From Escherichia coli (lineage in GTDB: Bacteria > Pseudomonadota > Gammaproteobacteria > Enterobacterales > Enterobacteriaceae): a DNA stretch of 997 nucleotides. The notes below the pieces were generated by a model that had not been told where the DNA came from, did not search any database, and saw only the letters and a program-made list of their open reading frames with translations. Positions 849 through 997 of this stretch are shown in pieces (position 1 is the first letter of the stretch; every line of letters begins with the position of its first letter). The translations under genes were made by a program, and so were the position numbers. Location of the stretch: NCBI RefSeq assembly GCF_003334385.1, contig NZ_QOWN01000136.1; one strand, written 5' to 3'.

Positions 849-997
849 CTATCTGCACTGCTCATTAATATACTTCTGGGTTCCTTCCAGTTGTTTTTGC
901 ATAGTGATCAGCCTCTCTCTGAGGGTGAAATAATCCCGTTCAGCGGTGTCTGCCAGTCGGGGGGAGGCTGCATTATCCACGCCGGAGGCGGTGGTGG
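849..997 (-). CDS. Rz: Rz (i-spanin, inner-membrane lysis protein), C-terminal 48 codons plus stop; 5' part lies beyond the window edge
   Basis: Minus-strand translation read in frame from 995 gives TTASGVDNAASPRLADTAERDYFTLRERLITMQKQLEGTQKYINEQCR, then stop TAG (plus-strand cta at 849..851). This matches the lambda Rz C-terminus as recalled. The six-frame track omits it because the ORF runs off the window. Confidence 0.9.
   Translation of the reverse strand, partial: TTASGVDNAASPRLADTAERDYFTLRERLITMQKQLEGTQKYINEQCR
908..997 (-). CDS. Rz1: Rz1 (o-spanin, outer-membrane lipoprotein), C-terminal 29 codons plus stop, embedded in the +1 frame of Rz; 5' part lies beyond the window edge
   Basis: Minus-strand translation read from 997 gives PPPPPAWIMQPPPDWQTPLNGIISPSERG, then stop TGA (plus-strand tca at 908..910). 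This matches the proline-rich lambda Rz1 C-terminus as recalled. It lies entirely within the Rz reading frame in a different phase. Confidence 0.9.
   Translation of the reverse strand, partial: PPPPPAWIMQPPPDWQTPLNGIISPSERG

Follow-up and report, generated by a model that had tools for sequence, protein, structure and literature searches.

The 3' part of an embedded, lambda-type Rz/Rz1 spanin locus in Escherichia coli lambdoid (pro)phage DNA

Introduction

Two reading frames on the minus strand overlap at the right edge of a 997-nucleotide stretch of Escherichia coli DNA (the window), and both run off that edge. The question raised by this locus is whether one piece of DNA here encodes two proteins and, if so, which two. 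A preliminary description made from the letters alone had read the frames as the two-component spanin pair Rz/Rz1 with Rz1 wholly embedded in Rz.

Rz/Rz1 is the founding example of spanins and of fully embedded out-of-frame genes. Published constructs with the two genes dis-embedded are functional. Rz sits in the inner membrane in N-in/C-out orientation and has two coiled-coils in the periplasm, and Rz1 is an outer-membrane lipoprotein. The two proteins bind via their C-terminal regions to span the periplasm, and the outer membrane is disrupted by Rz/Rz1, probably via membrane fusion (PMC5295617, PMC6139136). Both form homotypic disulfide dimers, Rz through C99 and C152 and Rz1 through C29 (PMC5295617).

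Results and discussion

Identity of the two overlapping frames

We found that positions 849..997 of the window are identical to 46279..46427 of phage lambda (NC_001416) at 149 of 149 bases. Phage 434 and E. coli SCU-104 also match this segment at every base, and the matches to the whole window are lambdoid phages and E. coli prophages. Since the lambda annotation places Rz at 45966..46427 and Rz1 at 46186..46368, the window carries codons 106-153 of Rz and codons 32-60 of Rz1, and the encoded fragments reproduce these residues of the lambda proteins exactly. At the homologous position, lambda, phage 434 and Stx phages are annotated with Rz/Rz1, i-/o-spanin or a 'nested gene within rz'. We put the probability at about 97% that 849..997 forms the 3' end of an embedded two-component spanin locus of the lambda type in an E. 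coli lambdoid (pro)phage. The identity to lambda, the family membership, the nested architecture, the conservation of both frames and the genomic context were all observed directly.

This is a textbook feature that was rightly called and is already known, and it is no discovery. The discovery value is small because the copy is lambda's across the entire stretch. The practical value lies in annotation, as the embedded o-spanin is missing from the closest RefSeq record, and the window is a clean positive control for recognising nested coding from raw sequence.

The features of the window are collected in Table 1. The Rz frame ends at 849 and reads TTASGVDNAASPRLADTAERDYFTLRERLITMQKQLEGTQKYINEQCR before its stop, with 48 codons open to the window edge at 997, where bases 996..997 are two bases of the A105 codon. 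To this part of Rz belong the distal linker and, with E150 and C152 (codon at 855..857), the distal coiled-coil CC2; the domain roles are taken from PMC5295617. The Rz1 frame, shifted by +1, reads PPPPPAWIMQPPPDWQTPLNGIISPSERG before its own stop, with 29 codons open to the same edge. Its stop lies 59 bases before that of Rz, as in lambda, and the third minus-strand frame is closed with four stops. The 48-aa Rz fragment matches PHROG 13 'Rz-like spanin' (2e-20), and the 29-aa Rz1 fragment matches PHROG 3198, likewise annotated 'Rz-like spanin' (2.1e-13).

Table 1 Features located in the 997-nucleotide window
Feature	Position	Strand	Details
cos site	1..78		77/78 identical to joined lambda ends
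iss/bor, complete 97-aa lipoprotein gene	524..817	+	lipobox ITGC; Pfam Lambda_Bor PF06291, 4.6e-30
Hairpin UGCCCAU-AUCG-AUGGGCA, 7-bp GC-rich	828..845		between the convergent Rz and iss/bor stops
Rz (i-spanin; rzpD in E. coli prophage naming), 3' third	849..997	-	codons T106-R153, stop TAG 849..851
Terminator-like stem-loop and T-run, CTGGGTTCCTTCCAG TTGTTTTTGC	876..900	+	consensus match only
Rz1 (o-spanin; rzoD), 3' half, +1 frame of Rz	908..997	-	codons P32-G60, stop TGA 908..910
G6 homopolymer (C6 on the coding strand)	959..964	-	Rz1 P43-P44 (CCC CCC)
Rz1 penta-proline P32-P36 codons	983..997	-	mixed codons CCA CCA CCG CCT CCG

All coordinates of the preliminary description proved correct, namely the +1 phase of Rz1, its stop and the position of the G6 run. 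Its claim that both frames are coding over the same DNA holds for 908..997, but 849..907 encodes Rz only. The G6 run had also been assigned to the Rz1 polyproline stretch. It does belong to a proline tract, the second one (PPP, residues 42-44), but not to the penta-proline P32-P36. Rz1's proline-rich region including this penta-proline is a reported essential fusion motif (PMC5295617).

Full-length genes in the closest locus

The window stops short of both start codons, the Rz transmembrane segment and the Rz1 lipobox, and these were recovered from a proxy locus and from relatives, not from the source genome. The proxy, a locus of E. coli SCU-104 (L002), is identical to the window at 996 of 997 bases, with the single mismatch at about window position 209. 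Its Rz has an ATG start and 153 aa and differs from lambda Rz (NP_040646) only by S2N. The strongest 19-residue hydrophobic segment of this protein is residues 5-23, with a Kyte-Doolittle mean of 2.63. The Rz1 of the proxy, in the +1 frame, has 60 aa and differs from lambda Rz1 (YP_001551744) only by L2R. It contains the lipobox VVGC, in which Cys20 is followed by Thr-Ser with no Asp at +2 (outer-membrane sorting). The full-length Rz matches Pfam Phage_lysis PF03245 (3e-54) and the full-length Rz1 matches the Pfam Rz1 family PF06085 (3.7e-20). C99 of Rz and C29 of Rz1 are present in the proxy, and C152 lies in the window. Rz1 is thus wholly inside Rz, with its 3' boundary seen in the window and its 5' boundary in the proxy and in lambda.

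The preliminary description had proposed a rightward extension and an alignment to the lambda proteins, and had named a missing Rz start, N-terminal transmembrane segment or Rz1 lipobox as grounds against its reading. In SCU-104 the extension reaches both starts and the Rz1 lipobox, all three elements are present, and both protein lengths match those of lambda, with the two substitutions above as the only differences. The call of a classic two-component spanin pair is borne out by the lambda identity, the Pfam and PHROG families and the nested architecture, which all agree. Searches of NCBIfam assigned Rz, Rz1 and their fragments to no family and gave sub-threshold noise only (e.g. PspB); this blank reflects the coverage of the library and does not contradict the spanin identity.

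On the Rz strand, the gene order of the proxy is essD (holin), rrrD (endolysin) and rzpD (Rz), followed by the convergent iss/bor. The spanins stand at the distal end of the holin-endolysin cassette in this locus, as they do in lambda (S, R, Rz) and, in the same order, in phage 434. The SCU-104 RefSeq record annotates rzpD, and the intact embedded rzoD/Rz1 (L002 6908..7090) is left without annotation. The lysis cassette at L002 7307..8019 is a mosaic, with a phage-21/DLP12-type essD holin and rrrD lysozyme joined to spanins whose 3' end is lambda-identical, as in phage 434. Immediately upstream of it are an ompC-like porin gene and the quuD antiterminator.

Comparison with known spanin loci

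Within 849..997 nothing differs from lambda Rz/Rz1, which has the same nesting and the same +1 frame. Lambda also has the same 31-base spacer to a convergent bor-type gene, in which one base differs, at window position 846. The rzpD/rzoD genes of DLP12 (E. coli K-12) and the i-/o-spanin genes of phage 434 belong to the same Rz/Rz1 family. In both, as in the locus closest to the window, lambda-type spanins follow a class II (pin)holin and a SAR-type endolysin (essD/rrrD) in a mosaic cassette. The Rz/Rz1 genes of Stx phages (933W/Sepvirinae-type) show the same embedded architecture, +1 frame and C-terminal Rz1 motif at about 82-88% DNA identity, but their Rz1 has 61 aa and the lipobox VSAC or TAAC. 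As the Stx-phage Rz1 reads QPAPDW and not QPPPDW, it has no C6 run.

Conservation and dual-frame coding

We compared 14 related loci that range from 100% to about 72% DNA identity. The +1 offset and the embedded frame are kept in all 14, and so are the Rz1 start, the lipobox (VVGC, VSAC, TAAC, AVAC or SVGC) with its Cys and no Asp after it, and the Rz1 C-terminal motif PAW-M-P-PD-TPLNGIISPS. The strongest hydrophobic segment of Rz is N-terminal in every one of them.

In a codon alignment of these relatives, the usual excess of differences at third positions is seen in the Rz-only zones. Averaged over pairs, the Rz-only 5' zone differs by 0.10/0.10/0.28 at Rz codon positions 1/2/3 and the Rz-only 3' zone by 0.21/0.16/0.47, compared with 0.21/0.12/0.18 in the overlap. 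Here Rz position 3, which is position 2 of Rz1, is damped, and Rz position 1, which is position 3 of Rz1, is raised. Within the part of the overlap that lies in the window, 17, 9 and 10 of 29 sites are variable at the three positions (Fisher p=0.03 for the shift between positions 1 and 3). The switch from a single-frame to a dual-frame substitution pattern falls exactly in the overlap. Published mutagenesis placed the mature Rz1 coding region within a mutationally silent Rz linker (residues 94-134), so that each stretch of DNA mainly serves one protein (PMC5295617), and the substitution pattern fits this result.

These data bear on the simplest alternative, in which Rz is the sole gene and the +1 frame, open by chance, has no product. 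Among 20,000 shuffles of the 149 bases, 13% give one frame open over at least 48 codons and a second over at least 29, so the open frames alone are weak evidence. The absence of a rzoD gene from the RefSeq annotation of the closest genome would also fit a chance frame. However, missing o-spanins are a documented annotation problem, with 196 of 528 not identified (PMC6139136), and the product of the +1 frame equals residues 32-60 of lambda Rz1, an experimentally established lipoprotein that is required for lysis (PMC5295617). A meaningless frame would likewise leave unexplained the matches to PF06085 and PHROG 3198, the start, lipobox and C-terminal motif kept in 14 of 14 relatives and the reshaped codon-position pattern. 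We reject the chance reading, which is hardly credible in the face of this homology and conservation, and of the lambda genetics, even with the 13% obtained by shuffling. The feature is real because of its exact identity to lambda and its conservation, and not because two frames are open.

Predicted role in lysis and status of this copy

For membrane topology, complex formation and fusion mechanism we rely on the published work on lambda. By this analogy, the Rz of the present locus would be a type-II protein of the inner membrane, with periplasmic coiled-coils that extend across the periplasm. Rz1 would be a 40-residue mature outer-membrane lipoprotein, made from a start of its own within Rz in the +1 frame. 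The window encodes the interacting parts, namely the end of CC2 in Rz with E150 and C152 and Rz1's proline-rich region, and the C-terminal regions of both proteins, which it also encodes, would bind each other. After the endolysin has removed the peptidoglycan, the Rz/Rz1 complex would disrupt the outer membrane, probably by fusion with the inner membrane, and this would be the last step of phage lysis.

The pair could also be intact yet silent, carried as a passenger in a defective, DLP12-like prophage, with no present function in its host. PGAP gives the closest locus the names of the cryptic prophage DLP12 (rzpD, rrrD, essD, nohD). An 86-base segment of the locus was present in 4,452 of 5,426 E. 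coli genomes (median 2 copies per genome), and many of these copies must sit in decayed prophages. The surroundings speak against such decay, however. In the closest genome, one flank encodes the small and large terminase subunits, the portal, an S49 protease and a decoration protein, and the other encodes the Q antiterminator, the holin and the endolysin, so that the late region looks complete. The cos site of the window is identical to that of lambda at all positions but one, and the coding sequence within the window is without defect. We therefore consider the silent passenger rather unlikely. If the locus does lie in a defective prophage, this copy of Rz/Rz1 may never be used.

The G6 run

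The G6 run, which encodes P43-P44 of Rz1, spans S116 (tCC), P117 (CCC) and R118 (Cga) in the Rz frame. It had been flagged in the preliminary description as a possible slippage site. The corresponding proposal is a programmed slippage, either ribosomal (+1 at CCC-CGA) or transcriptional, which would yield a hybrid of Rz(1-117) and Rz1(45-60). The geometry permits this, as the Rz frame reads UCC CCC CGA and a P-site tRNA-Pro that slips by +1 on CCC-C lands on GAC in the Rz1 frame. The comparative data point the other way. Six C are found only in the lambda-like copies, and 10 of the 14 relatives have four or five; one relative (L012) has AGA in place of CGA, which breaks CCC-C. The Cs that are conserved are already accounted for by amino-acid constraints (P117-R118 in Rz, P43-P44-D45 in Rz1), and conservation of the slippery sequence beyond coding constraints was absent among the 14 relatives. 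No Rz-Rz1 hybrid product is described in PMC5295617 or PMC6139136.

Length variants of the run are rare. Taking the best match per record in complete E. coli genomes, we counted 3,077 exact G6 alleles, about 40 G5 and at most 3 G7. The G5 and G7 examples that were inspected, such as those of E. coli RM8426 and A7 (L015 and L016), are annotated by PGAP as 'frameshifted' pseudogenes of rzpD or rzoD. Such alleles may reflect genuine decay of prophage lysis genes, or else homopolymer errors of long reads. Because the run is not conserved in relatives and its length variants are annotated as pseudogenes, we reject programmed slippage, which appears very improbable, and the slippage remark of the preliminary description has to be toned down. 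The run behaves as an ordinary hotspot of low-frequency indels or homopolymer sequencing errors, which inactivate both genes at once. We give equally little credit to a weaker version, in which low-level +1 frameshifting at the C-run would produce a minor Rz(1-117)-Rz1(45-60) hybrid that is anchored in the inner membrane, has the C-terminus of Rz1 and modulates the assembly or the timing of spanins.

Surroundings of the locus in the window

The neighbour of Rz is the convergent iss/bor gene, at a spacer of 31 bases (818..848). Its product is 93% identical to lambda Bor and is named 'increased serum survival lipoprotein Iss' (a serum-resistance lipoprotein) by PGAP. The spacer contains the stable hairpin at 828..845, with -16.9 kcal/mol (z=-2.6 relative to shuffles) and a T-run on neither side; the single spacer difference from lambda falls just outside its stem. 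The stem-loop at 876..900 follows the iss/bor stop at a distance of 59 bases, antisense to the Rz-only part of the 3' coding sequence, and is a possible candidate for an intrinsic terminator of iss/bor, judged from its match to a consensus. Three such terminator-like matches were found in the window, against 0.9 expected. A sigma-70 scan of the whole window found no promoter-like site, and Rfam at E<=1 gave one chance-level match in the window, to ES205 inside iss/bor (21 bits against a gathering score of 86).

The cos-to-bor stretch of the window is shorter than in phage 434 and lambda, and part of it has been replaced. Neither lambdap78/79 of lambda nor the phage 434 DUF3950 gene is present there; about 75 unrelated bases (about 79..155) form a short replacement segment instead. 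A small ORF on the plus strand (201..356 or 132..356, 51-74 aa) has no match in Pfam, PHROG or NCBIfam. It is unrelated to the DUF3950 protein found at the equivalent position in phage 434. Some RefSeq genomes annotate a 'hypothetical protein' under the match to this region.

Within the cos site, the 12-base cohesive end AGGTCGCCGCCC (reverse complement of GGGCGGCGACCT) corresponds to cosN at 35..46, and the record of phage 434, which is a linear virion genome, has its end exactly at window position 47. The window therefore derives from an integrated, circular or concatemeric form and not from a packaged genome.
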